Shown: positions 7,767 to 63,767 of the stretch, one piece after another
Position numbering within the stretch: the stretch's first letter is position 1
Layout: the number at the start of each line of letters is the position of its first letter
NCBI GenBank assembly: GCA_043814605.1
Contig: JBDRJV010000028.1
Coordinates: 92,350 to 156,349 of the forward strand
Origin: Candidatus Omnitrophota bacterium
GTDB lineage: Bacteria; Omnitrophota; Gorgyraeia; B26-G9
Length of the DNA: 64,000 nucleotides
Direction: 5' to 3'
The notes under the pieces: model-generated
What the model was told of the DNA's origin: nothing
Database searches by the model: none
What the model saw: the letters and a program-made list of their open reading frames with translations, nothing else
Translations under genes and position numbers: made by a program

Positions 7767-7850
7767 CTTAAAAATCCGCTTGCTTATTGACAAAACAGGT
7801 AGAGAGTAAGGTATAATAATTAAAGAATATTAAGATTCTTATTAATGGAT

Positions 7851-7925
7851 CAAGACATCCTATAATAGGAAAGTAGGAGGATGTCTTGATTATATAGATT
7901 AAAATTATTTTATAGAGAGATTACA
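7851..7925 (+). ncRNA. 5' half of the repeated leader element family A (hairpin aagacatcct..aggatgtctt plus the 'gagattacag' arm), here split by the GxxExxY gene
   Basis: Near-identical to 63069-63150. A promoter-like ttgaca (7787) with ggtataat (7810-7817) lies upstream. Confidence 0.5.
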
Positions 7926-8234
7926 GTGATTAAGGAGAGGGATCTGTTAACTGAGAAAATAATCGCTTGTGCTTATAATGTACATAGTAAACTTGGTCCT
8001 GGATTTAGCGAAAGTATATATCATAAGGCATTAAAAATAGTGTTAAAAGAACAGGGTTTAAAGTATCAAACTGAGAAAAGTTTTGATGTTTGTTTTCAAG
8101 GTAAAAACATTGGTAAATGTAGGCTCGATTTAGTCATCGCTGACAAGATTGTAATAGAACTGAAAGCTCTTAGCGGTAATATTCCTGCTGTATTTGAATC
8201 ACAGGTTTTATCTTATCTAAAAGTATCAGGATAA
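7926..8234 (+). CDS. GxxExxY family protein (PD-(D/E)XK-like), GTG start
   Basis: Motif GPGFSESIYHKAL (G-x-x-E-x-x-Y); 102 aa; sits exactly between the two halves of leader element A. The second copy of the element (63069-63252) lacks the gene. Confidence 0.7.
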   Translation: MIKERDLLTEKIIACAYNVHSKLGPGFSESIYHKALKIVLKEQGLKYQTEKSFDVCFQGKNIGKCRLDLVIADKIVIELKALSGNIPAVFESQVLSYLKVSG

Positions 8235-8282
8235 AAGAGCGGGTTTTTGATAAGCTTTGGCAATAAGAGTTATCAAGTTAGA

Positions 8283-8373
8283 AGATTAATGGTTTAATCT
8301 TCGTAATCTATTGTTAATCGTGGTAATCAGGGATAATCCAATCCAGGAGTGAGGATTATACCAGGAGGTATAA
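8283..8373 (+). ncRNA. 3' half of leader element A (cgtaatc arm plus hairpin gggataatcc..ggattatacc), immediately before the RBS of the 8374 gene
   Basis: Matches 63166-63252 almost base for base. Hairpin ends 12 nt before the ATG and is followed by aggagg. Confidence 0.5.
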
Positions 8374-8742
8374 ATGAAAAAAATAGTTATGTTTTTATTT
8401 TTCTTATCAATTACATCAGTAAGCTTTGCACATCCGCCGAGCAATGTGAAAATCAGCTATTCTTCGGAGCAAAGTATGTTGGCGGTTAATTTTACACATC
8501 TTACGAATAATGGTAAAAAACATTATATCCGTAAGATCAGCATTATCCGGAGCGATGTCAGTACTGAGGATACTTATTACGTGCGGCAGGAAGAAGTAAA
8601 AGATGTTTTTAAAACTATACCCATAAAATTAAACCCTAAGGAAATGATTAAATTAAAAATTTACTGTGAAAAGGGCGGGATGAGCGAGACCGCGTATACC
8701 GCGGCAGAGGGAAAAAGTCAAAATAAAAACAAAAAAGAATAG
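8374..8742 (+). CDS. Small secreted protein with signal peptide, hypothetical
   Basis: MKKIVMFLFFLSITSVSFA signal peptide; Lys-rich C-terminus; no recognisable domain. Confidence 0.5.
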   Translation: MKKIVMFLFFLSITSVSFAHPPSNVKISYSSEQSMLAVNFTHLTNNGKKHYIRKISIIRSDVSTEDTYYVRQEEVKDVFKTIPIKLNPKEMIKLKIYCEKGGMSETAYTAAEGKSQNKNKKE

Positions 8743-16825: not shown

Positions 16826-16915
16826 GGAGAGGTGCCGGAGCGGTTTAACGGGCATGCCTGGAGAGCATGTGTAGTCGCAAGGCTACCCAGGGTTCGAATC
16901 CCTGCCTCTCCGCCA
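16826..16915 (+). tRNA. tRNA-Ser (anticodon GGA), type II with long variable arm, CCA encoded
   Basis: Acceptor ggagagg/cctctcc; 3-bp D-stem ccg/cgg; anticodon stem catgc/gcatg with loop cuGGAga; long variable arm; T-arm caggg-ttcgaat-ccctg; discriminator G plus CCA. Confidence 0.85.
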
Positions 16916-17485
16916 AAAATAAAATCCCCTTTTCAGGGGTTTTTATTTCATAGAGGGAAACGAAGTTTTTACCTATGGGCGCTCGTTCCGCCGATGGCGG
17001 GAGCTCGCTGTCACTCCTTTCCATAATGTTGAATTCTTAGTCAAAAAAGATGGGGAGTATTATCCACTTTTTATTTAAAAATCTTTGCCCATCATAGTAA
17101 TTCCTTTAAAATCAATAAGTTAAGTTAAAACAGTTGACAAAGGAAGATTTAGAATGTATACTTAGTAATAGGATTTACAAAGTTTTTATTAACATTTGGA
17201 CAGTTAAATTGAAAGGTGCAAGATAAAGAGACAGGGAAAAAGAAAAAGGAAATTATATTATTTTTGATTACTGAAAAGTAATTATTAAAATTTGTTATTA
17301 GTAGCCCCTATCTCCCAATTGAATACCCTTCAATTATTAAATATCCGAAAAGGCAAACCCTAAGCAATTAGGGGACCCCGGCGATAATTATTCCGGGTCC
17401 CGCCAAAGGCGGGAGCAAAGCTACGGGTCTTTTATCCAAAGATTGCCGAGCATACCGATAACGCGCAGATTAAAAATTGGACAAG

Positions 17486-17541
17486 ACAGCCGAGCTGCCG
17501 AAGTATCTAGATGATGCTTTAGTAGTTCGGCTGTTTTTTTA
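17486..17541 (+). terminator. Hairpin + T7 (acagccga..tcggctgt-ttttttt), 75 nt upstream of the C25 peptidase start; terminator or attenuator of an upstream small transcript
   Basis: 8-bp stem plus T-run. Preceded by GC hairpins ggaccccgg..ccgggtcc and cccgcc-aaagg-cggg in the tRNA-peptidase spacer. Confidence 0.5.
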
Positions 17542-28509: not shown

Positions 28510-28565
28510 TACAGCGTCTAGCGTTTAGCGATTAGCGTTTAGAAAAAAGAAATTTCTCGTTATTT

Positions 28566-28636
28566 GCTACTCTCTACTCGTTGAGAACATTAATATTAAT
28601 TTTAGCGAAATTCCCGCAAGGGCGGGGCTACTTTAA
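28566..28636 (+). repeat. Repeat element D copy 1 (71 nt: gctactctctactcgttgagaacattaatattaattttagcgaaattcccgcaagggcggggctactttaaa), ends 10 nt before the 28647 start
   Basis: Second copy at 32243-32313 (2 differences). Contains hairpin cccgc-aagg-gcggg and the rc of the agtagagagtagc motif. Preceded by the 'tagcgtttagcgattagcgtttag' micro-repeat (28518-28541). Confidence 0.7.
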
Positions 28637-31875: not shown

Positions 31876-32242
31876 ACGATAACCGATCTTTGGGAATCAA
31901 ATAAAAACACATCCTATGAAATAATGTTTATTTTCTGGCAATTTATGCCCGAAGACTATGCCGCCAAAAAACCATCCTTGGTTTATGGCGTTTCGACATC
32001 CTGCCAGCCTCGCCGTTACAGTGAGGTTGGCATGAAGATGGCTAGGCGGGTCTTCATCTTCGTACATAAATTAAAGAAAATCACACATAATTTCATTATG
32101 GCTGCTTTTTTTATTTAATTTTCAAATAAGTAATTAAATCAAAAATTGTTCGCAAACTGTAGTAATATTATAAATAGGGTAAAGGGAATCAAGATAAGGA
32201 GAAAGTGAAAAAATCTCGCTACTTGCTTGTGCCCGTAAGGGT

Positions 32243-32313
32243 GCTACTCTCTACTCGTTGAGAACATTAATATTAATTTTAGCGAAATCCCGCAAGGGCG
32301 GGGCTACTTTAAA
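32243..32313 (+). repeat. Repeat element D copy 2, ends 10 nt before the GTG start at 32324
   Basis: See 28566-28636. Confidence 0.7.
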
Positions 32314-36826: not shown

Positions 36827-37040
36827 GCTAATATAATAACATAGAACAAGTGATAAAGAGGGATAATAAATAATCCTGTAGGGACAGCCCCGACGAAGGA
36901 GGGGTGCGAAGCAGGCACTGCCCTGTCCTTCAACAATAGTACAAAAATAATAATATAGACCAGAGGCATTGCTTGTCTGCTAACAAATAAAAACACATCC
37001 AGTGAAATTATGTTTATTTTCTAATAATTTATCCGGTCGT

Positions 37041-37247
37041 GTCTTGTGTTTATTCACACCAGACCACTCGTTGGTCCCCAGCGAGGCCCAACTTCGTTCG
37101 GCGATCCGTGTTCGCGCTTGAGGCTTTAATAATTTTTTAGCCTCAAACCATGCCTGCTCACACTTCTCAACGTCCGGCTTAGAATAAACACATAACACAT
37201 AACAGCTATGAGCTATCAGCCATAAGCTAGTTACTGGCAACCTTTTT
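37041..37247 (+). ncRNA. Structured RNA element B copy 1 (~200 nt, hairpin-rich, ends in a T-run), candidate sRNA
   Basis: Paralog at 40964-41168 (~85% identity). Compensatory changes preserve the stems (gttgg..ccaac vs gttagg..cctaac; gtgtttattc..gaataaacac vs gtatttattc..gaataaatac); loop-only changes in the gaggc-loop-gcctc hairpin. Confidence 0.55.
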
Positions 37248-40864: not shown

Positions 40865-40963
40865 ACTCTAAAATCTTCTTCCTAAACCTTAAGTAAAAGT
40901 TATTTTATCTTACAGTAGCTGATATTTTTTTCGTTCAATTTAAATTTATTTTTCACAAACACT

Positions 40964-41168
40964 GTCTCGTATTTATTCACACCGGAACACTTGTTAGGCC
41001 CCGGCGAGGCCTAACTTCGTTCGGCGATTTGTGTTCGCTCTTGAGGCTTTATTTATCTTTTAGCCTCAACCCATGCCCGCTCACACTGCTCAACGTCCGG
41101 CTTTGAATAAATACTCGCCAGTAGTATCAACTTTAAAGAATAAAGCTTGTAACTGTCAGCTTTTTTTA
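40964..41168 (+). ncRNA. Structured RNA element B copy 2, ending in a clear intrinsic terminator (aaagct-tgtaactgtc-agcttt + T7 at 41141-41168)
   Basis: See copy 1. Lies 100 nt after the thyX stop. Followed by the micro-repeat gctaatcgctaaacg (41199-41213, rc of the 28518 motif). Confidence 0.55.
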
Positions 41169-41225: not shown

Positions 41226-41253
41226 TTGACAAACCAAGAGCAGTTGATATAAT
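41226..41253 (+). promoter_or_regulatory. Promoter of the cobalamin-riboswitch operon (TTGACA-N16-TATAAT)
   Basis: ttgaca 41226-31, tataat 41248-53. Confidence 0.6.
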
Positions 41254-41257
41254 ACAA

Positions 41258-41500
41258 AACAAATACAGGTGCTCTTAGGAAGAGCTTAAAAAGGGAAGTA
41301 TGGTTTAAAGCCATCACGGTCCCGCCGCTGTAACTGAGGACGAAACTTATAAAGCCACTTTCTTAGCATTTAAGATGGGAAGGTATAGGGAGTAGGATGA
41401 TTCAGAAGTCAGAAGACCTGCCTGTTATTAATAAGTGTATAGCAGAAATGGATTTTCGCTATCCTCGCGGAAGGATGAATTAAAATCAGGGTGCAATCCT
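41258..41500 (+). promoter_or_regulatory. Cobalamin (AdoCbl) riboswitch
   Basis: aaaaAGGGAAgtatGGTttaaagCCatCACGGTCCCGCCgCTGTaa core (B12-box-like), plus downstream aaGCCACTTtcttagcatttaagatGGGAAGGTa and aGTCAGAAGACCTGCC segments matching the Rfam cobalamin consensus. Confidence 0.8.
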
Positions 41501-46373: not shown

Positions 46374-46425
46374 AAAAATATTAGCTACAGGTGTTAGGTT
46401 ACAAGTTTCAGGCCAAAACATTTTT

Positions 46426-46530
46426 ATACATCTGCGGCCTAAAACCGCGCCCATTTATGGCGCGGATAAAAGGAAGCTGCTTGAATATTCCACCCCAGGA
46501 ACCACGGGCTTTAGCTTGTGGGGGTTCCAT
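46426..46530 (+). ncRNA. Structured RNA element C copy 1 (~105 nt)
   Basis: ~92% identical to 49503-49607. Stem acggg/cccgt in copy 2 becomes acggg/cttgt in copy 1, so the transitions convert G-C to G·U pairs on the + strand only; conserved hairpin ccgcgcc-atttat-ggcgcgg. Confidence 0.55.
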
Positions 46531-46746
46531 TTATGACTTGCAGCTTGATTCCGGATACTTGTAACTTGAAAGGTGGTGATCAAAGATTAGAAAATGTGAT
46601 TTTTTGCTAGGGGTTTTTATTCAATAAGTGAAAAAACAACGTTAAGAGAGAAGGAAATAACCAGATAAACAAAGGAACTCCCGTAACCTAATTGTATATA
46701 AAACTACAATTAAGAATTCGGGGACTGCCCCGCAACGGTAATATTT

Positions 46747-46810
46747 GGAAGTAGCAAGTAGAGAGTAGCAAGTAGAGAGAATCCAAAAAAATCTCGCTAC
46801 TCGGATCTCG
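46747..46810 (+). repeat. Heptamer-based repeat element F (agtagcaagtagagagtagcaagtagagag ... tctcgctactcgg ... cttgctact), imperfect palindrome upstream of the TonB-dependent receptor gene
   Basis: Shares the agtagagagtagc and aaaaaatctcgctact motifs with 32215-32260, with element D (as reverse complement) and with 63716-63750 (agagtagagag x4). Confidence 0.6.
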
Positions 46811-49428: not shown

Positions 49429-49502
49429 CCATCCATGCATCTACGAGGTGGAAATATGGTTGGATTTGACAAAAATTGACTAAAAAGAGTACAATGAATT
49501 TA

Positions 49503-49607
49503 TACATCCGCGGCCTAAAACCGCGCCCCTTTATGGCGCGGATAAAAGGATGCCGCTTGAGTATTCCACCCCAGGAACCACGGGCTTTAGCCCGTAGGGG
49601 TTCCATT
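49503..49607 (+). ncRNA. Structured RNA element C copy 2, 24 nt upstream of the DJ-1/PfpI gene
   Basis: See 46426-46530. Confidence 0.55.
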
Positions 49608-49630
49608 AATTTATAAAGAAACGGAAAAGA

Positions 49631-58844: not shown

Positions 58845-59324
58845 GTGAAAATGATTGTAAAAAATAATATGCAGACACAAATTTTATCTGTGAAACGCGG
58901 GACAACTCTAACCCAATTATTAGGGTTATTTAAAGATTTCCACAGTTTTCCAGTGGTTCCGGTTGTAGATAATGATAATGTATTAATCGGCATTGTGCAT
59001 ATTAAAAGTTTTTTTGAAATTTTTCAACCTACGTATCAAGATATTTTAATGCGTAATCCGCTTTCGATGATCAGCCGGGCGCCGGCTAATATTTTTGATA
59101 TTGATATTGACGAAGGTTTGGGATTTTTGGTATTAGTTGCGGATATTATGGATAAAAATATTGTAAAAATTAAAGAAAACCAGGAAATCAGAGCAGCTTA
59201 TGATTTAATGCATTTACATGGCTGGGATGCGATTCCTGTGGTTGATGACCAAAATAAGTTAATGGGGATTATTAGTACCTTCGATATTATGATAAAAATT
59301 TTTCAAGAAAAAGGATTAATATAA
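58845..59324 (+). CDS. CBS-pair regulatory protein (unit 1 of tandem duplication)
   Basis: Two CBS motifs; ~80% aa identity to 60591-61064. Confidence 0.7.
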   Translation: MKMIVKNNMQTQILSVKRGTTLTQLLGLFKDFHSFPVVPVVDNDNVLIGIVHIKSFFEIFQPTYQDILMRNPLSMISRAPANIFDIDIDEGLGFLVLVADIMDKNIVKIKENQEIRAAYDLMHLHGWDAIPVVDDQNKLMGIISTFDIMIKIFQEKGLI

Positions 59325-59360
59325 AAACATGAAAAAATATAAGAATTTGAAAGCACGATA

Positions 59361-60536
59361 ATGAATATAATTTTAGGTGTGGGTATTATTTTAATCTTTG
59401 GCCTTTTTTCCGGGAAAATTGCGGAAAAAGTTAAAACCCCGGCGATTACTGCCTATCTTATTTTAGGAATATTAATCGGTCCTTATGCTTGTAATCTTAT
59501 TTCCGGGAATGTAATCAAAATTTCCGGGATTATTTCTAATATTGCTTTAAGTTTTATTGCGTTTAGCATTGGGCAGAATTTTTCTGTGCAGACTTTCCGG
59601 GAAGTTGGTAAGCAAGTATTATGGATTTCAATACTGGAAGCCTTGGGAGCCTGGATAGTAACAGTTGTGGCTTTGGTTTTTTATAAAGTTCCTTTGTATT
59701 TAGCGCTTATTTTTGGGGCAATTGCTGCGGCAAGTGCTCCGGCAGCAATAATTATGGTTGTGCGTGAATATAAAGCACGGGGAAAATTTGTGGATGTTTT
59801 AATGGGTGTGGTTGCGTTGGATGATGCCTGGGGATTGATAATTTTCTCTATTTCCATGGCTTTATCAAAGGCAATGTATGCACATCTTTCCACGAGCGTA
59901 GGGAATGTTTTAGGTAAGGCATTTTTTGAAATTGGCGGTTCTTTTCTGCTGGGAGGAGTTTTGGGAGTTGCCTTAAGCCGGATGGGAAGGTTTTTAAAAA
60001 ATCAAACAGAACTTTTAATTTATACAGTAGGCATAATTTTTATCGCAACTGGATTAGCGCTGTATTTTCATGTCTCTGTTTTGCTCACCACCATGTTTTT
60101 AGCGGCTGTAGTTGTAAATTTAAATAGTGAAAGTTTTAAATTTTTCGATGTTTTAAGCCATATTGACTGGCCGATATATCTTATATTTTTTGTTTTAGCC
60201 GGGGCCAGTTTAGAAATTGATTTATTGATGAAAATCGGTATAATAGGTATTGTATACATAATTTTTCGCGTTGTGGGAAAAATTATCGGTACTTATTTAG
60301 GGGCAAAAATTTCTGGAGCAAGCTCTGATATTCAGAAATATTTAAGCTTAGGCTTATTGCCGCAAGCCGGAGTTGCTTTAGGAATGGCTTTAATTGCCCG
60401 GGATCAGTTTCCTGAATTTGGCGGTATTATTTTTACAACGGTTGCAGCGACAACAGTGATCTATGAAATAATTGGTCCTTTTTTTGTTAAGATGGCCCTA
60501 ATTAAGACAAATCAGATTCAAACACTTTCACATTGA
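59361..60536 (+). CDS. Cation:proton antiporter (unit 1)
   Basis: Polytopic; N-terminus AITAYLILGILIGPY; paralog of 61067-62275. Confidence 0.75.
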   Translation: MNIILGVGIILIFGLFSGKIAEKVKTPAITAYLILGILIGPYACNLISGNVIKISGIISNIALSFIAFSIGQNFSVQTFREVGKQVLWISILEALGAWIVTVVALVFYKVPLYLALIFGAIAAASAPAAIIMVVREYKARGKFVDVLMGVVALDDAWGLIIFSISMALSKAMYAHLSTSVGNVLGKAFFEIGGSFLLGGVLGVALSRMGRFLKNQTELLIYTVGIIFIATGLALYFHVSVLLTTMFLAAVVVNLNSESFKFFDVLSHIDWPIYLIFFVLAGASLEIDLLMKIGIIGIVYIIFRVVGKIIGTYLGAKISGASSDIQKYLSLGLLPQAGVALGMALIARDQFPEFGGIIFTTVAATTVIYEIIGPFFVKMALIKTNQIQTLSH

Positions 60537-60590
60537 TAATGTTATTAAATTTTTTTTCTCTAATTTACTAAAATTTACTAAGGGTAAATT

Positions 60591-61064
60591 ATGCAAGTAA
60601 AAGAAATAATGCAGACACCTGTTTTAAGTGTAAAACGCGGGACAACGCTTTCCCAGTTGTTAGAATTATTCAAAGACTTCCATAGCTTTCCAGTGGTTCC
60701 AGTTGTAGATAATGATAATATATTAATTGGCATTGTACATATTAAAAGTTTTTTTGAAATTTTCCAGCCGCATCATCAAGATATTTTAATGCGTAATCCG
60801 CTTTCAATGATCAGCCGGGAGCCGACTAATATTTTTGATATTGATATTGAAGAAGGCATGGGATTTTTAGTATTAGTTGCGGATATCATGGATAAAAAAA
60901 TTGTGAAAATCAAAGAAACTCAAGATTTAAAAGAAGCGTATAATTTAATGCAATTACATGGACGGAATATGGTCCCGGTTGTGGATGATCAGAAAAAACT
61001 GGTAGGGATTATCAGTGTTTTTGATATTGTTATGAGATTGTTTAAAGAAAAGGGACTTTTGTAG
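60591..61064 (+). CDS. CBS-pair regulatory protein (unit 2)
   Basis: Paralog of 58845-59324. Confidence 0.7.
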   Translation: MQVKEIMQTPVLSVKRGTTLSQLLELFKDFHSFPVVPVVDNDNILIGIVHIKSFFEIFQPHHQDILMRNPLSMISREPTNIFDIDIEEGMGFLVLVADIMDKKIVKIKETQDLKEAYNLMQLHGRNMVPVVDDQKKLVGIISVFDIVMRLFKEKGLL

Positions 61065-61066
61065 CA

Positions 61067-62275
61067 ATGAATGCTCTCCTTGGCATAAGCATAATTCTTT
61101 TGTTTGGCCTTTTATCCGGAAGAGTTGCGGAAAAAGTGAAAACTCCGGCAATTACTGCCTATCTTGTATTAGGAATTCTTCTTGGGCCTTATATGTTTAG
61201 TTTTGTGCCCAAGAGTATCCTCAATTCTTCAGGATTAATTTCTAATTTTGCGTTAAGTCTAATTGCTTTTAATATTGGGCAGAATTTTTCTAAAAATATT
61301 TTTCAGCAAGTTGGCAATCAGGTATTATGGATTTCTGTATTAGCAGCTTTTTCTGCCGGAGCCTTTGTTGTCTGCGGATTATTTTTGTTAGGACTGCCTT
61401 TATATATTGCTTTAATTTTTGGCGCAATTGCTACCGCGACTGCACCGGCAGCGTTGATTATGGTAATCCGGCAGTATAAAGCAAAGGGGAGATTTACAGA
61501 AATCTTAATGGGGGTTGTGGCCATTGATGATGCTTGGGGCTTGATTGCTTTTTCGGTTTGCTTGGCTTTTGCCCGTAAAATTCATTTTAATCATACTTCT
61601 AGTTTTTTTCAAGTAGTGTTAAAATCTACAGCTGAAATTGCCGGGTCTCTTTTTTTGGGAGCGGTTATTGGTTTTATTTTTGTAAAATTTTCTAAATATA
61701 TTTATAGCCAAATAGATTTATTAATCTATACTGTCGGAACTATTTTTTTTACTGCAGGACTGGCAATACATTTTCATTGGTCAGTACTTTTAGCGTGTAT
61801 GATGCTTGCAGCAGTGATTGTTAATTTTGACCGCGAAAATTTTCGATTCTTTGATATTTTACAAACTATTGACTGGCCGATATATCTACTATTTTTTGTT
61901 TTAGCCGGAGCTAATTTAGAAATTGAACTTTTAACTAAAGTTGGCTTAATTGGTACGGTATACATTGTGATGAGAATTGTCGGAAAATGCGTGGGCACAT
62001 ATTTAGGGGCAATTGCCTCAGGGGCCGGATCCGACATCAGAAATTATATGGGAATAGCCCAAATGCCTCAAGCGGGCGTGGCTTTAGGCATGGCGTTAGT
62101 TGCTAAGGATAGTTTTTCTGAGCTGGGCGGCATGATTTTTACCACCATTGCAGCGACAACAATTATTTATGAAATAATCGGCCCTTTTTTTGTTAAATTC
62201 GCCCTACAAAAAACTAACCAAATACCTCAGGCAAAACCGACAAAATTAGAAGTCCCGGTGGAAACTTCTTCATAA
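61067..62275 (+). CDS. Cation:proton antiporter (unit 2)
   Basis: Paralog of 59361-60536. Confidence 0.75.
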   Translation: MNALLGISIILLFGLLSGRVAEKVKTPAITAYLVLGILLGPYMFSFVPKSILNSSGLISNFALSLIAFNIGQNFSKNIFQQVGNQVLWISVLAAFSAGAFVVCGLFLLGLPLYIALIFGAIATATAPAALIMVIRQYKAKGRFTEILMGVVAIDDAWGLIAFSVCLAFARKIHFNHTSSFFQVVLKSTAEIAGSLFLGAVIGFIFVKFSKYIYSQIDLLIYTVGTIFFTAGLAIHFHWSVLLACMMLAAVIVNFDRENFRFFDILQTIDWPIYLLFFVLAGANLEIELLTKVGLIGTVYIVMRIVGKCVGTYLGAIASGAGSDIRNYMGIAQMPQAGVALGMALVAKDSFSELGGMIFTTIAATTIIYEIIGPFFVKFALQKTNQIPQAKPTKLEVPVETSS

Positions 62276-62974
62276 TTAAAGGATTTCTTTTTTCTTTAAA
62301 TATCGAAACTTGCCTGGTTCTAAATCTCCGAGTTTTAATTTCCCGAATTGAATTCTTTTTAATTCAATTACCGGATGATCAAAGAGCGCAAAGATTTTAC
62401 GAATCTCTCGTTTGCGGCCTTCATGCAGAATAAGTCTGATTTTTGTTTTTGTTTTTTCCCGGCGAATAATTCTAATTTTACAAGGAGAGGTTTTGTAATC
62501 TTCAATATTTATGCCGCCTTTTTCAATTTTTTTTATAGTTGATGGCTGAAGGGGGTTTTTCATGGATACTTCATAAATGCGGTCTATTTCAAATTTAGGA
62601 TGGGTAAGCTTGTAGCTTAAATTTCCGTCATTAGTTAAAATTAAGAGACCGCAACTGTCTTTATCCAAACGTCCTACCGGATAAACCCGGGCGAAAATAT
62701 CCGGTAAAAGATCTAATACGGTTTTCTCCGCATGTACATCTTTAGTGGTTGTAATATAGCCCTTTGGTTTATGCAAAAGAATATATAATTTTTTTTCTAA
62801 TTTTAAAGGCGTATTATTTATCAGAATTCTATCTTTATTAGGGTCTGCTTGCGTACCTAATTCAGAGATAATTATTTGATTTACCTTTACCTTGCCCTGC
62901 GAAATGAGCTCATCTGCTTTTCTTCGTGAGCAGAACCCGCTTTTAGCGATAATTTTATTTAAACGTTCTTTCAT
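62276..62974 (-). CDS. rRNA pseudouridine synthase (RsuA/RluB family) with S4 domain
   Basis: S4 N-terminus; GRLDKDSCGLLILTNDG catalytic motif. Confidence 0.85.
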   Translation of the reverse strand: MKERLNKIIAKSGFCSRRKADELISQGKVKVNQIIISELGTQADPNKDRILINNTPLKLEKKLYILLHKPKGYITTTKDVHAEKTVLDLLPDIFARVYPVGRLDKDSCGLLILTNDGNLSYKLTHPKFEIDRIYEVSMKNPLQPSTIKKIEKGGINIEDYKTSPCKIRIIRREKTKTKIRLILHEGRKREIRKIFALFDHPVIELKRIQFGKLKLGDLEPGKFRYLKKKEIL

Positions 62975-63068
62975 TATTTTTTTATTTTTTCTTTAATTTT
63001 AAATCAGTTGACAAGGATCTTAAATATAGTTTACACTAAAAATACATTTCTTGCTGAAAAAAAATAAT

Positions 63069-63252
63069 AAGACATCCTATAATGGGAAAGAAGGATGATG
63101 TCTTGATTATATAGATTAAAGTTATTTTATAGGGAGATTACAGTAATTAAGCAGAAGGATCCATTAGATGGTTTAATTTTCGTAATCTATTGTTAATCGT
63201 TGTAATCAGGTATAATCCAATCCAGGAGTGAGGATTATACCAGGAGATTCTT
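63069..63252 (+). ncRNA. Leader element A, intact uninterrupted copy (~185 nt) in the 5' UTR of a CBS-domain gene
   Basis: Hairpin aagacatcct..ggatgatgtctt (63069-63105); long-range arms gagattaca/cgtaatct; hairpin ggtataatcc-aatccaggagtga-ggattatacc (63209-63241); then caggag RBS and ATG at 63253. Colinear with 7851-7925 plus 8283-8373. Confidence 0.55.
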
Positions 63253-63708
63253 ATGATCGCTGGCGATATTATGACGAGAGAAGTTAAAACTGTCAATCCG
63301 CAAATGCAAATAAGGGAATTAGCGGCTTTTTTTGTGGAGGAGAATATTAGCGGTGCTCCGGTTATTAATGCCTCAGGAAGATTTTTAGGGATAGTTACGG
63401 AAGAAGACCTGATTTATCAGGATAAGAAGGTTCATTTACCAACTTTCTTAAATTTATTCTCAAGTATTTTTGCTATCGGCTTGGATCAAATGGAGGAAGA
63501 ATTTAAAAAAATTGCCGCCACCAATGTTGAACAAATAATGCAAACCAATTCGAAAATAATAACAAAAGAAACAACCATTGAAGAAATTGCTACGATTATG
63601 AGTGAAGATAAAGCCTATTATCTTGTGGTTATGGAACAGGGCAAGATTGAAGGAATTATTACAAAAAGAGATTTAATTAAAGCGGTAGCGAAAGGAAAAA
63701 TCTGGTAA
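63253..63708 (+). CDS. CBS-pair domain protein
   Basis: Two CBS motifs (GAPVINASGRFLGIVTEEDLI, GIITKRDLI). Confidence 0.7.
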   Translation: MIAGDIMTREVKTVNPQMQIRELAAFFVEENISGAPVINASGRFLGIVTEEDLIYQDKKVHLPTFLNLFSSIFAIGLDQMEEEFKKIAATNVEQIMQTNSKIITKETTIEEIATIMSEDKAYYLVVMEQGKIEGIITKRDLIKAVAKGKIW

Positions 63709-63767
63709 TTTATGGAGTAAAGAGTAGAGAGTAGAGAGTAGAGAGTAGAGAGAAAGGGGTGTAAGGC

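Follow-up and report, generated by a model that had tools for sequence, protein, structure and literature searches.

The 64,000-nt stretch of DNA analysed here (the window), from a contig of a Candidatus Omnitrophota bacterium (JBDRJV010000028.1), contains two similar sequences, one of which carries a small gene of the GxxExxY family (copy 1), while the other lacks this ORF (copy 2). A preliminary description regarded them as two copies of one leader RNA, with the gene sitting precisely inside the first and the second left empty. The locus raises the question of whether a gene has entered a regulatory RNA or whether the whole unit belongs to the gene. Paralogue expansions have long been noted in the GxxExxY family; to our knowledge, PF13366/TIGR04256 has no known function, and we know of no explanation for its multiplication within genomes.

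The split, colinear similarity of about 90% reported for the two copies proved real, comprising one block at 7852–7949 versus 63069–63166 (90% identity) and another at 8289–8367 versus 63168–63246 (96% identity). The resemblance is far above chance, yet it is also present outside the source genome. Within the window there are exactly two copies of the element and no third. The boundaries of the blocks differ from those proposed, since both extend past the ORF ends. In copy 2, where a lone G at 63167 parts the two blocks, 339 nt of copy 1 (7950–8288) are missing, and codons 1–8 of the ORF are kept (GTG ATT AAG GAG AGG GAT CTG TTA in copy 1 versus GTA ATT AAG CAG AAG GAT CCA TTA in copy 2), as are its last three codons with the stop (ATG GTT TAA). 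The similarity thus reaches into both ends of the ORF, and the gene is not precisely inside the element; the roughly 35 nt taken for filler in copy 2 are homologous to the ORF's own ends. Because both of these ends survive there and the start codon is mutated from GTG to GTA, copy 2 is an internal-deletion derivative of a gene-bearing copy and not a scaffold awaiting a gene.

All features described below lie on the + strand. Upstream of copy 1, a promoter-like sequence read from the DNA (7787–7817) consists of TTGACA (7787–7792), a 19-nt spacer and TATAAT (7812–7817); it belongs to the native flank, outside the repeat. The 80 nt to the left of copy 1 are identical (80/80) in a related locus, L083, and unrelated in another, L082 (23/80), and in copy 2. 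Homology between the copies begins at the first base of a hairpin, HP1 (7852–7887; AAGACATCCT, a 16-nt loop starting with TATAAT, and AGGATGTCTT), which forms the 5' end of the repeat. It is followed by two left inverted-repeat (IR-L) units carrying the family motif: unit 1, GATTATATAGATTA, at 7888–7901, and unit 2, GATTACAGTGATTA, at 7919–7932, the latter overlapping the SD-like GAGAG and the GTG start of the nuclease gene. The full GxxExxY (PDDEXK_3) frame spans 7926–8297. A small palindrome over its stop codon (AGATTAA TGGT TTAATCT, 8283–8300) is predicted to form a hairpin. Right inverted-repeat (IR-R) unit 1, TAATCTTCGTAATC, begins with this stop codon (8295–8308), and unit 2, TAATCGTGGTAATC, occupies 8315–8328. 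A second hairpin, HP2 (8330–8362), is built from GGGATAATCC, a loop containing a second CCAGGAG, and GGATTATACC, with one G.A mismatch in the stem; an HP2 model, R1, matches copy 1 at 8315–8370 (E 6.5e-8). Homology among near-identical copies stops at ...ACCAG (8364), within the segment (8363–8376) that holds the AGGAGG SD and the ATG (8374) of an unrelated 122-aa gene. Copy 1 (7852–8364) is a full-length cassette, but a nonsense codon interrupts its gene. The complementary arms noted earlier, GAGATTACA (7917–7925) and CGTAATCT (8302–8309), are indeed present, and the hairpin ahead of an SD was seen in both copies.

The second site shows the same order without most of the gene. A native promoter of the CBS gene (TTGACA, an 18-nt spacer and TACACT, 63008–63037), conserved in orthologous loci that have no element, precedes HP1 (63069–63104), the IR-L units (63105–63149; unit 1 at 63105–63118, unit 2 at 63136–63149), the ORF remnant (63143–63176; GTA in place of GTG, codons 2–8, the extra G, the last three codons with TAA), the IR-R units (63174–63207; unit 1 at 63174–63187, unit 2 at 63194–63207) and HP2 (63209–63246). 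The latter, composed of GGTATAATCC, a loop and GGATTATACC, is a perfect stem followed by AGGAG and matches the model with an E of 1.2e-10; the CBS gene starts at 63253. Copy 2 (63069–63246) is thus the cassette minus 339 nt of its gene, and it lies within the CBS gene's 5' UTR. Loci of CBS orthologues (66% amino-acid identity) keep the same native promoter and lack the element, and no closely related strain was found to carry a full nuclease gene at this site, the nearest CBS orthologue found being 69% identical. No terminators were predicted around either copy, and HP1 has no T-run; no rRNA was present in the window, and both copies lie between protein genes.

The 102-aa ORF (7926–8234) first taken for the gene turned out to be a truncated form. 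The frame continues past the in-frame TAA (8232–8234) to 8297, giving 123 codons, and the read-through protein matches TIGR04256 over profile positions 2–115 of 116 with 118.8 bits (E 1.6e-34; curated cut-off, 35 bits), while a paralogue, P0001, matches PF13366 with an E of 1.3e-35. Codon 103, TAA in copy 1 and in L082, which carries the same allele, is Tyr in the paralogues. The nonsense codon costs the protein 21 C-terminal residues, among them the invariant GLLINFGNKSCQ block, so that the gene is inactivated or shortened and the full-length ORF is not intact in the window, whose only GxxExxY-like coding stretch lies at 7926–8294. The frame carries GPGFSESIY, LD(68) and IE(78)LK(80), and in the active site E29, D68, E78 and K80 do not vary among 38 homologues. 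An AF2 model predicts a compact alpha-beta nuclease core whose nearest folds are Cas4 and Hjc. Among solved structures there was no relative by sequence; the fold matches are generic PD-(D/E)XK nucleases, and they include RNA-cutting relatives, namely splicing endonucleases and cap-snatching enzymes. A profile search placed about 20,000 clusters at 50% identity in PF13366/TIGR04256, with many two-domain fusions of about 265 aa, an arrangement that suggests that the enzyme may act as a dimer. A defence system and phage carriage were both considered and rejected, since the nuclease gene had no match among the PADLOC defence models and no phage-borne relative in IMG/VR. Furthermore, no conserved partner gene was found next to the nuclease gene in the loci compared.

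The features of copy 1 recur widely. In the sampled set (L001–L084, nearly all on MAG contigs), about 63 of 69 related loci present a fixed order of HP1, tandem GATTACAnnGATTA, the ORF, the reverse complement TAATCnnTGTAATC, HP2 and the SD of an unrelated co-directional gene, within a cassette of about 520 bp. Each cassette contains two or more GATTACAnnGATTA units, the last of which overlaps the RBS and start codon of the nuclease gene. Along with the gene, these non-coding flanks have been kept in MAGs assigned to Omnitrophota, Planctomycetota, Desulfobacterota, Nitrospirota, Elusimicrobiota, WOR-3, Ratteibacteria and others. The enclosure of the ORF by complementary arms, already proposed for copy 1, was accordingly borne out, as GxxExxY genes from dozens of genomes lie between these same arms and hairpins. 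Moreover, the similarity goes beyond generic promoter or RBS sequence: additional copies have the structured flanks in common over their whole length, and the promoters are not part of the repeat. A 12-base composite motif was seen more than 100 times in 1.1 Mb, versus about 0.1 expected by chance. When the 5' flank was aligned with the reverse complement of the 3' flank, the median score was 40, compared with 18–20 in the controls, and complementarity exceeded both controls in 63 of 69 loci; terminal inverted repeats are thus present.

The motifs differ between divergent protein subfamilies and the complementarity of the flanks is kept, as illustrated by the repeat pairs of L074 (GACAGGATAACAGGAT and ATCCTGTTATCCTGTC), L070 (GGATGGACAGGATGG and CATCCTGTCCATCC) and L072 (GATGAAC.. 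and GTTCATC..). Units within one element agree at variable positions more often (263/354) than units from different elements (233 +/- 5; p 2e-4). Regarding the register in which IR-L and IR-R would pair, nested and crossing arrangements fit equally well, and the spacer bases inside the units show no covariation in a defined register. Mismatches between the flanks include a modest excess of G:T (105) over A:C (65) on the + strand, and the long-range IR-L/IR-R stem does not form when the entire copy 1 RNA is folded to minimum energy. These tests fit recognition of the repeats as DNA as well as their pairing in RNA. On finished plasmids of cultured bacteria, only distant family members (33–41% identity) were found, with an architecture that is weak in Treponema, replaced by direct repeats in Fusobacteria and absent in Persicobacter; the claim of a conserved cassette is therefore limited to the clades sampled in L001–L084.

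Both hairpins appear to be maintained as structures. Perfect hairpins of at least 6 bp starting 0–2 nt outside the repeats occur at 25% of sites versus 2.5% of random positions, and compensating substitutions are present in HP1 as well as in HP2. The HP2 model yielded 47 matches, every one on the gene strand, 97.6% paired; five of its eight pairs show double changes, and the score was reached by none of 500 shuffles. HP1 occurs with at least 10 different stem sequences by direct count, its mismatches on the + strand being mostly A:C (5 versus 1), a small number overall. The loops are hypervariable and the stems alone are conserved. HP2 adjoins the SD, and many loci offer two alternative 3' arms for it.

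The position of the cassette relative to its neighbours is also constrained. A co-directional ORF begins 40–130 nt downstream in 78 of 81 loci; the upstream neighbour lies on the same strand in 61/72 loci and the downstream neighbour in 68/78. In 13 of 22 loci the stop codon of the upstream gene falls at -2 to +4 nt of HP1. The cassette site is a spacer between co-directional genes or, as in the window, between a promoter and its gene. Downstream of the element we found more than 60 functionally unrelated genes, including rmlA-like, rpsD, phoU-like, purC, epimerase and CBS genes. The genes downstream of the two window copies are likewise unrelated, as originally stated, with a 122-aa protein followed by a YHS protein after copy 1 and the CBS protein after copy 2.

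At least five paralogues of at least 90% identity, two of which lie at contig ends, are spread over different contigs of the source MAG, and near-identical copies occupy five or more sites in the population, with L081, L082 and L083 having different neighbours. Copy 1 is identical to L083 up to 8140 and to L082 from 8055 onwards, with zero mismatches on either side. Gene-less copies are common, in other genomes as well, in agreement with the earlier suggestion of a selfish element whose ORF is optional. An identical truncated form was found at two sites of one MAG, although the junction that L067 and L068 have in common may have arisen by repeated deletion at a CTTGATTT microhomology. The copy 2 junction GGATCCATTAGATGGTTTAAT had no match in JGI metagenomes; the 3' block TTCGTAATCTATTGTTAATC matched only L090, the orthologue of L067. 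Since all gene-less copies can be explained by deletion, trans-mobilisation is hypothetical. Target-site duplications were absent at the five defined junctions (the left side shared by copy 1 and L083, the left side of L082, and those of L081 and copy 2; the right sides read ACCAG followed by GAGG...), no exact empty site was found at high nucleotide identity, and neither transposition nor homing was seen directly in the sequences compared. The source MAG is outside the GTDB representative set, in which the best relative is 79% identical.

Taken together, these observations are best explained if both window sequences are, as we consider probable, members of a multi-copy selfish nuclease cassette of the GxxExxY (PF13366/TIGR04256) family that lives in operon spacers. 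We infer that the cassette is a selfish, mobile or gene-converting element. In the mechanism that we propose, a dimeric nuclease would recognise the tandem half-sites at both cassette ends and cut at or near the conserved junctions between CT and GATTAC and between GTAATC and AG. Such cuts would promote the spread of the cassette, by copying, to new stop-codon-to-SD spacers or to gene-less copies related to it. HP1 may supply a stable 3' end to the upstream message, so that the upstream neighbour stays expressed, and HP2 with the adjoining SD may supply a protected, translatable 5' end to the downstream message, while IR-L/IR-R pairing could mask the nuclease start in read-through transcripts. 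Deletion between short GATTA-type repeats would generate gene-less copies, which might persist because they are harmless.

A different function for the same parts, serving expression and not mobility, would be that of an RNA processing module, in which the long IR-L/IR-R duplex of an operon transcript is cut by RNase III or by the nuclease itself, in the manner of 23S rRNA intervening sequences, releasing the nuclease message and leaving an upstream mRNA that ends in HP1 and a downstream mRNA that begins with HP2 and the SD, the module spreading by ordinary recombination and horizontal transfer. The strict co-orientation with both neighbours, the exact filling of the stop-to-SD spacer, the placement of 47/47 HP2 matches on the transcribed strand, the hairpin covariation, the excess of G:T over A:C in the flanks and the RNA-cutting enzymes among the fold matches all agree with such a module. 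However, it leaves unexplained the near-identical copies at unrelated sites and the shift of the repeat motif with the protein clade, and it fits poorly with the spacer bases that do not covary in a defined register, with the predicted copy 1 fold that lacks the long-range stem and with the predominance of A:C among HP1 mismatches on the + strand. As a complete account we regard it as rather unlikely; as an addition to the selfish cassette, RNA processing is compatible with it. The shared cis-regulatory leader or riboswitch put forward in the preliminary description, which would control both downstream genes, now appears very improbable. Each copy does have a promoter-like site before it and an SD behind it, HP2 with its alternative 3' arms adjoins that SD, and the predicted folding of the copy 2 RNA slightly surpasses that of shuffled sequences (z -2.1), but Rfam 15 gave no gathering-score match at either site, only chance-level matches with E around 4–5 in 62950–63300 (searched up to E 10), 78 loci show no relation among their downstream genes, the stems but not the loops are kept, and the flanks accompany the nuclease gene and not a pathway. 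Orthologous CBS genes also use the same promoter without the element, and the riboswitch reading is largely refuted.

The repeats could also be operators of a stationary, autoregulated nuclease gene, defence- or toxin-like, with the copies representing gene-converted paralogues and copy 2 a decayed one. The homogeneity of units within an element, the change of motif along with the protein clade and the overlap of the gene start by the repeats are in line with this reading, as is the hybrid make-up of copy 1, which exactly combines two other copies and, unless it is an assembly artefact, shows that copies recombine. Against it stand the lack of a PADLOC match and of a conserved adjacent partner gene, and the gene-less copies retained at many sites; moreover, operators would need neither covarying outer hairpins nor a fixed spot relative to the neighbours' stop codon and SD. 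We therefore judge a stationary gene improbable. The same hybrid, with its zero mismatches to L083 and L082, and the two paralogues at contig ends would be expected if the repeat and its odd contexts arose from mis-joined short-read contigs, but the element occurs with the same architecture in independent assemblies, samples and phyla, and an artefact as the source of the pattern seems highly unlikely. The doubt is confined to the linkage between the left (PfkB-like) and right (122-aa) neighbours of copy 1; both copies exist.

If the selfish cassette reading is extended to the family, GxxExxY proteins may be the dedicated nucleases of widespread, undescribed operon-dwelling selfish elements, cutting their own half-sites and copying the cassette or refilling gene-less copies, a generalisation that we put forward tentatively. 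In this scheme, a dimeric mini PD-(D/E)XK enzyme would cut the tandem GATTACA-type half-sites bracketing its own gene or, alternatively, the palindrome formed where the repeat sets abut in a gene-less copy; gene-less copies would be reconverted to gene-bearing ones, amounting to homing into a dispersed repeat, and the built-in hairpins and SD would keep the host operon working. If true, this would account for the paralogue expansions of the family. The conserved design supplies concrete candidate substrates and cut sites, and, should the nuclease act on its own repeats, it would add a new class to the enzymes of mobile elements and would be a compact, sequence-specific nuclease whose tandem half-site code looks programmable.

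Several known systems share parts of this design. REP/REPIN sequences with their RAYTs also combine short palindromic repeats in intergenic spacers with an enzyme gene bracketed by inverted repeats of its presumed target type, a repeat sequence that follows the enzyme clade and gene-less inverted doublets scattered in the genome. RAYTs, however, are HUH/Y1 enzymes and usually single-copy, whereas the cassette gene is multi-copy and encodes a PD-(D/E)XK enzyme of about 123 aa (PF13366 only); in addition, the cassette has tandem 14-nt units, outer hairpins and strict co-orientation with its neighbours. Like the cassette, MITEs and the TIR insertion sequences from which they derive have terminal inverted repeats and occur in several copies, and copy 2 is reminiscent of their non-autonomous forms with internal deletions. 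Unlike them, the cassette shows no target-site duplication and no recognisable DDE or other transposase, the PD-(D/E)XK nuclease being the only gene inside, and its insertion is confined to stop-codon-to-SD spacers in one orientation. IS200/IS605 elements and PATEs share the subterminal hairpins at both ends, the lack of target duplication, the small size and the gene-less derivatives, but the cassette, a 522-bp unit, encloses no TnpA (Y1) or TnpB ORF and its ends are two-fold symmetric (hairpin-repeat ... repeat-hairpin), in contrast to IS200/IS605 hairpins, whose action is limited to a single strand.

Free-standing homing endonuclease genes, such as phage seg/mob and the PD-(D/E)XK enzymes I-Ssp6803I and I-Bth0305I, are likewise small nuclease genes that sit between host genes of the same direction and have hardly any polar effect; rank 19 among the fold matches is a PD-(D/E)XK homing enzyme domain, and the two-domain fusions recall monomerised homing enzymes. 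They differ in normally lacking cognate inverted repeats and hairpins and in spreading between alleles of one site and not to many sites. The ORF-bearing intervening sequences of 23S rRNA (S23p, four-helix-bundle type) also hold a small ORF within complementary arms of a longer transcript, with excision proposed to occur by cleavage of the closing duplex without religation, whereas the cassette lies in mRNA spacers, not in rRNA helices, and encodes a different protein family. Searches of Rfam and the literature returned no account of the cassette, and the full-text literature searched names the GxxExxY family and never treats its flanks; as far as we found, a design present in many bacterial phyla is apparently undescribed there. 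Apart from their mode of spread, such cassettes break MAG assemblies and can yield hybrid contigs, as copy 1 may exemplify, and they leave structured 180-nt leader inserts that are easily mistaken for riboswitches.

The GxxExxY frame at 7926–8297 lies within a cassette (copy 1, 7852–8364) that has a gene-less counterpart in the window (copy 2, 63069–63246). Two colinear blocks join the copies, 7852–7949 with 63069–63166 (90% identity) and 8289–8367 with 63168–63246 (96%), separated in copy 2 by a single base. The similarity reported in the preliminary description was thus real, but its boundaries were misplaced, as the blocks enter the coding sequence at both ends of the ORF, covering codons 1–8 (GTG ATT AAG GAG AGG GAT CTG TTA in copy 1, GTA ATT AAG CAG AAG GAT CCA TTA in copy 2) and the final three codons with the stop (ATG GTT TAA). 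Copy 2 lacks 7950–8288 (339 nt), has GTA in place of the GTG start codon and keeps coding remnants; consequently, it is an internally deleted gene-bearing copy and not an empty scaffold. The 64-kb window contained no third cassette copy and no other GxxExxY-like coding stretch. The 102-aa ORF of copy 1 (7926–8234) is a truncated frame: past the TAA at 8232–8234, a codon that is Tyr in paralogues, the frame is open to 8297, and the 123-residue read-through product matches TIGR04256 end to end (E 1.6e-34). Copy 1 is most likely a full copy in decay, and copy 2 a gene-less derivative produced by deletion.

In the protein, residues E29, D68, E78 and K80 were invariant among 38 homologues. The AlphaFold model predicted a minimal PD-(D/E)XK core (pLDDT 86, pTM 0.79), and Foldseek searches of the PDB with it retrieved Cas4 SSO0001 (E 9e-5), the Holliday-junction resolvase Hjc (TM 0.50, rmsd 3.9), lambda exonuclease, a homing-endonuclease catalytic domain and tRNA-splicing endonucleases. 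For the predicted model, these matches confirm a nuclease fold rather than a specific assignment. Sequence searches found no relative of solved structure, and no PADLOC model matched the protein. Profile searches recovered approximately 20,000 clusters at 50% identity, many of them two-domain fusions of approximately 265 aa, suggesting that the protein works as a dimer. In these fusions (P0251, P0255, P0256 and many more) two GxxExxY domains stand in tandem within one chain, and in a few members (P0372, P0385) the domain is embedded in proteins of approximately 900 aa.

The window ORF is identical to MFH1460179.1, encoded on a 162-kb contig of a Candidatus Omnitrophota MAG, which has at least four additional paralogues of 90% identity or higher on separate contigs, where contig ends interrupt two of them. 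Near-identical cassettes with different neighbours occurred on metagenome contigs from other samples: L081 is bordered by a membrane-protein gene and a NIL/ferredoxin gene; L082 shares the nonsense allele and downstream gene of copy 1 and differs in its upstream gene; L083 has an intact gene, the PfkB-like gene and promoter found upstream of copy 1, and purC downstream. Homology among these copies starts at the very first nucleotide of the 5' hairpin, AAGACATCC, and runs to ...ATTATACCAG, directly before GAGG; no target-site duplication was visible at their junctions. Copy 1 is an exact hybrid, with 0 mismatches to L083 up to 8140 and 0 to L082 from 8055 on (7772–8473 with flanks), which places the crossover inside 8055–8140. 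It represents either a recombinant of two copies or a chimeric assembler join, so that the PfkB-like gene and the downstream 122-aa gene may not be true neighbours.

A close paralogue, searched against a set that represents each species by one genome, recovered 80 loci (1.06 Mb, many phyla), nearly all on MAG or metagenome contigs. The non-coding flanks of copy 1 aligned to many of these loci as well as the gene did, and a single architecture was read in them: an outer 5' hairpin (HP1, ending CT or CTT), 14-nt tandem units, the ORF, reverse-complement units, A, an outer 3' hairpin (HP2) and AGGAG. After HP1 come at least two copies of GATTACAnnGATTA, the last overlapping the SD and the start codon (ATG/GTG ATT AAA); the ORF ends in RRLMV plus stop and is followed by at least two copies of TAATCnnTGTAATC, the reverse complement of the 5' units. 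HP2, preceded by A, most often reads GGTATAAT...ATTATACC, and an unrelated gene starts 5–9 nt past AGGAG. A 12-base composite motif occurred more than 100 times in the sampled DNA, against approximately 0.1 expected, and was correctly oriented on either side of the gene. At locus L018 (10400–10700), three tandem copies of the 3' module, each with two TAATC..GTAATC units and a GCGCGC hairpin, separate the nuclease gene from the gene that follows; their period is 114 nt.

When each 5' flank was scored against the reverse complement of its own 3' flank by strand-symmetric local alignment, the median score was 40, compared with 18–20 for direct-orientation and shuffled controls, and 63 of 69 loci exceeded both controls. 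In divergent protein subfamilies the motifs differ, yet the two sides remain complementary (GACAGGATAACAGGAT / ATCCTGTTATCCTGTC in L074, L076 and L079; GGATGGACAGGATGG / CATCCTGTCCATCC in L070; GATGAAC.. / GTTCATC.. in L072). Variable unit positions agreed within elements in 263 of 354 cases, compared with 233 ± 5 between elements (p 2e-4); a nested pairing register fitted no better than a crossing one. Among distant members on finished plasmids, Treponema showed a weak form of the design (ACACGGATTC / GAATCCGTGT), Fusobacteria had direct repeats, and in Persicobacter the design was absent. The architecture is thus established for the sampled clades, not for all of PF13366. On the plasmid of Fusobacteria bacterium ZRK30 (L092, 1100–1630), the gene lies between 22-nt direct repeats, CAGATTTAATCCGTGTACCTAT, each followed by AGGAGG, with no inverted repeats.

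At 46 of the 184 TAATCnn(n)GTAATC sites counted on both strands, a perfect stem of at least 6 bp began 0–2 nt beyond the unit, compared with 50 of 2000 random positions, giving the cassette two-fold symmetric ends (hairpin-T-GATTAC ... GTAATC-A-hairpin). A covariance model built on the final 3' unit together with HP2 and the SD matched 47 sites (E < 1e-3, 1.13 Mb), all on the gene strand. In its alignment 97.6% of cells were paired, with two-sided changes in 5 of 8 pairs (22 cells); none of 500 shuffles attained the score and slid controls collapsed, although a model-fitted alignment favours structure. Independent examples come from the rpsK–rpsD site, where HP2 in different MAGs is AGTTTTAAT/ATTAAAAC, AAATTTAAT/ATTAAATT or GTTTAAC/GTTAAAC. 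HP1 showed at least 10 different stem sequences adjoining the first unit. At the rpsK–rpsD junction in Desulfobacterota MAGs (L051, 9898–9933; L057, 557–593; L066, 8934–8969), HP1 takes its 5' arm from the final rpsK codons and has the stop codon in its loop, and synonymous codon differences between MAGs are mirrored by the 3' arm. The HP2 loop often holds a second, degenerate 3' arm, TTATACCTGA before GATTATACCAGGAG (L003, L004, L007, L011, L025, L034, L037, L067), seen in the window as a second CCAGGAG (8340–8368, 63219–63246). The 5' arm thereby has two alternative partners, and the doubling could be a switch or a footprint of end formation.

In 78 of 81 loci, a co-directional ORF of at least 70 aa began 40–130 nt past the nuclease stop, mostly preceded by the SD next to HP2. 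By a longest-ORF strand test, neighbours were on the same strand upstream in 61 of 72 and downstream in 68 of 78 cases, the exceptions being mostly undetermined by that test. The upstream stop codon lay -2 to +4 nt from HP1 at 13 of 22 loci (TAA-GACATCC, TAG-ACATCC), and the upstream ORF ended inside HP1 at 7 more; the cassette thus exactly fills the stop-codon-to-SD spacer of packed operons, through either target choice or selection. Unlike these, copies 1 and 2 each lie behind a promoter-like site. The promoter of copy 2 (GTTGACAAGG ... TTTACACTA) is kept at orthologues of the downstream CBS gene (start 63253), as is the synteny (Na/H exchanger, pseudouridine synthase on the minus strand, CBS, Band_7), and the leaders of these syntenic orthologues lack the cassette, which identifies copy 2 as an insertion in the CBS gene 5' UTR; a close strain with the exact empty allele was not found. 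In contigs L085–L088 (1270–1400), which encode an identical CBS protein, a AATACCTTACCT tandem repeat upstream of the conserved promoter varies in copy number, and the leader of approximately 115 nt is unrelated to the cassette.

Gene-less arrays recur elsewhere: 5' units directly abut 3' units at intergenic positions in L007, L008, L015, L023, L031, L035 (three), L053 and L055 (three). Both hairpins and an SD are often present in these arrays, and several retain scraps of the ORF start, like copy 2. Deletion between short GATTA-type repeats at both ORF ends is sufficient to generate them. In a single Planctomycetia MAG, two loci with different neighbours (L067, L068) carry an identical fusion of HP1 to codon 67, also present in L090, a metagenome orthologue of L067; either a defective element was duplicated to the other site or the same microhomology deletion arose more than once.

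The cassette is most likely a multi-copy selfish element in which cognate inverted repeats and outer hairpins enclose a nuclease gene. The preliminary proposal of a selfish element with an optional ORF was broadly right, except that it took a deletion derivative for an empty scaffold; its riboswitch reading was wrong. Two observations, a repeat motif that differs from one protein clade to the next and the exact placement of the gene between its two repeat sets, suggest that the nuclease recognises its own repeats, where it may also cut; spread could proceed by transposition, or by homing or gene conversion among copies. Operon spacers may tolerate the cassette because a stop codon, two stabilising hairpins and an SD context come with it or are preserved by it. 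Compatible with this reading, and partly supported, is a role of the repeats in RNA, through fold-back masking of the nuclease start or as an RNase III site. The strand bias of the HP2 matches and a modest excess of G:T over A:C mismatches (105 to 65, with approximately 59 to 53 expected by composition) point to such a role, whereas the complete copy 1 RNA is predicted to fold with HP1 and the stop-codon hairpin but without the long-range stem. The literature searched contained nothing on the flanks of GxxExxY genes, an absence that is no proof of novelty; the finding offers a large protein family without known function an explanation that can be tested.

The window also holds a full-length cobalamin riboswitch match (41250–41439; Rfam, 104.9 bits, E 3.3e-25) and a c-di-GMP-I match just above threshold (17342–17502; 38.2, gathering score 35), whose 161 nt against an 87-position model imply large insertions; an 87-nt long-arm tRNA (16826–16912) lies 430 nt upstream of the latter. 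Intergenic tandem heptads, GTAGAGA / AGTAGCA, occur at 63709–63754, 46750–46781 and 7799–7808, and a 50-nt repeat (28565–28614 and 32242–32291, 98% identical, 3.7 kb apart) starts with the heptad complement (TGCTACTCTCTACTC...); together they make up a second family of repeats in this genome. Immediately before the copy 2 locus, 58857–62098 comprises two adjoining segments of approximately 1.7 kb, 70–87% identical (repeat families D1–D3), which look like tandem paralogues of a membrane-protein gene because the second falls largely inside a 402-aa membrane-protein ORF (61067–62275). Dispersed repeats were found at 37040–37191 and 40963–41114 (152 nt, 87%) and at 46423–46534 and 49499–49610 (112 nt, 92%).
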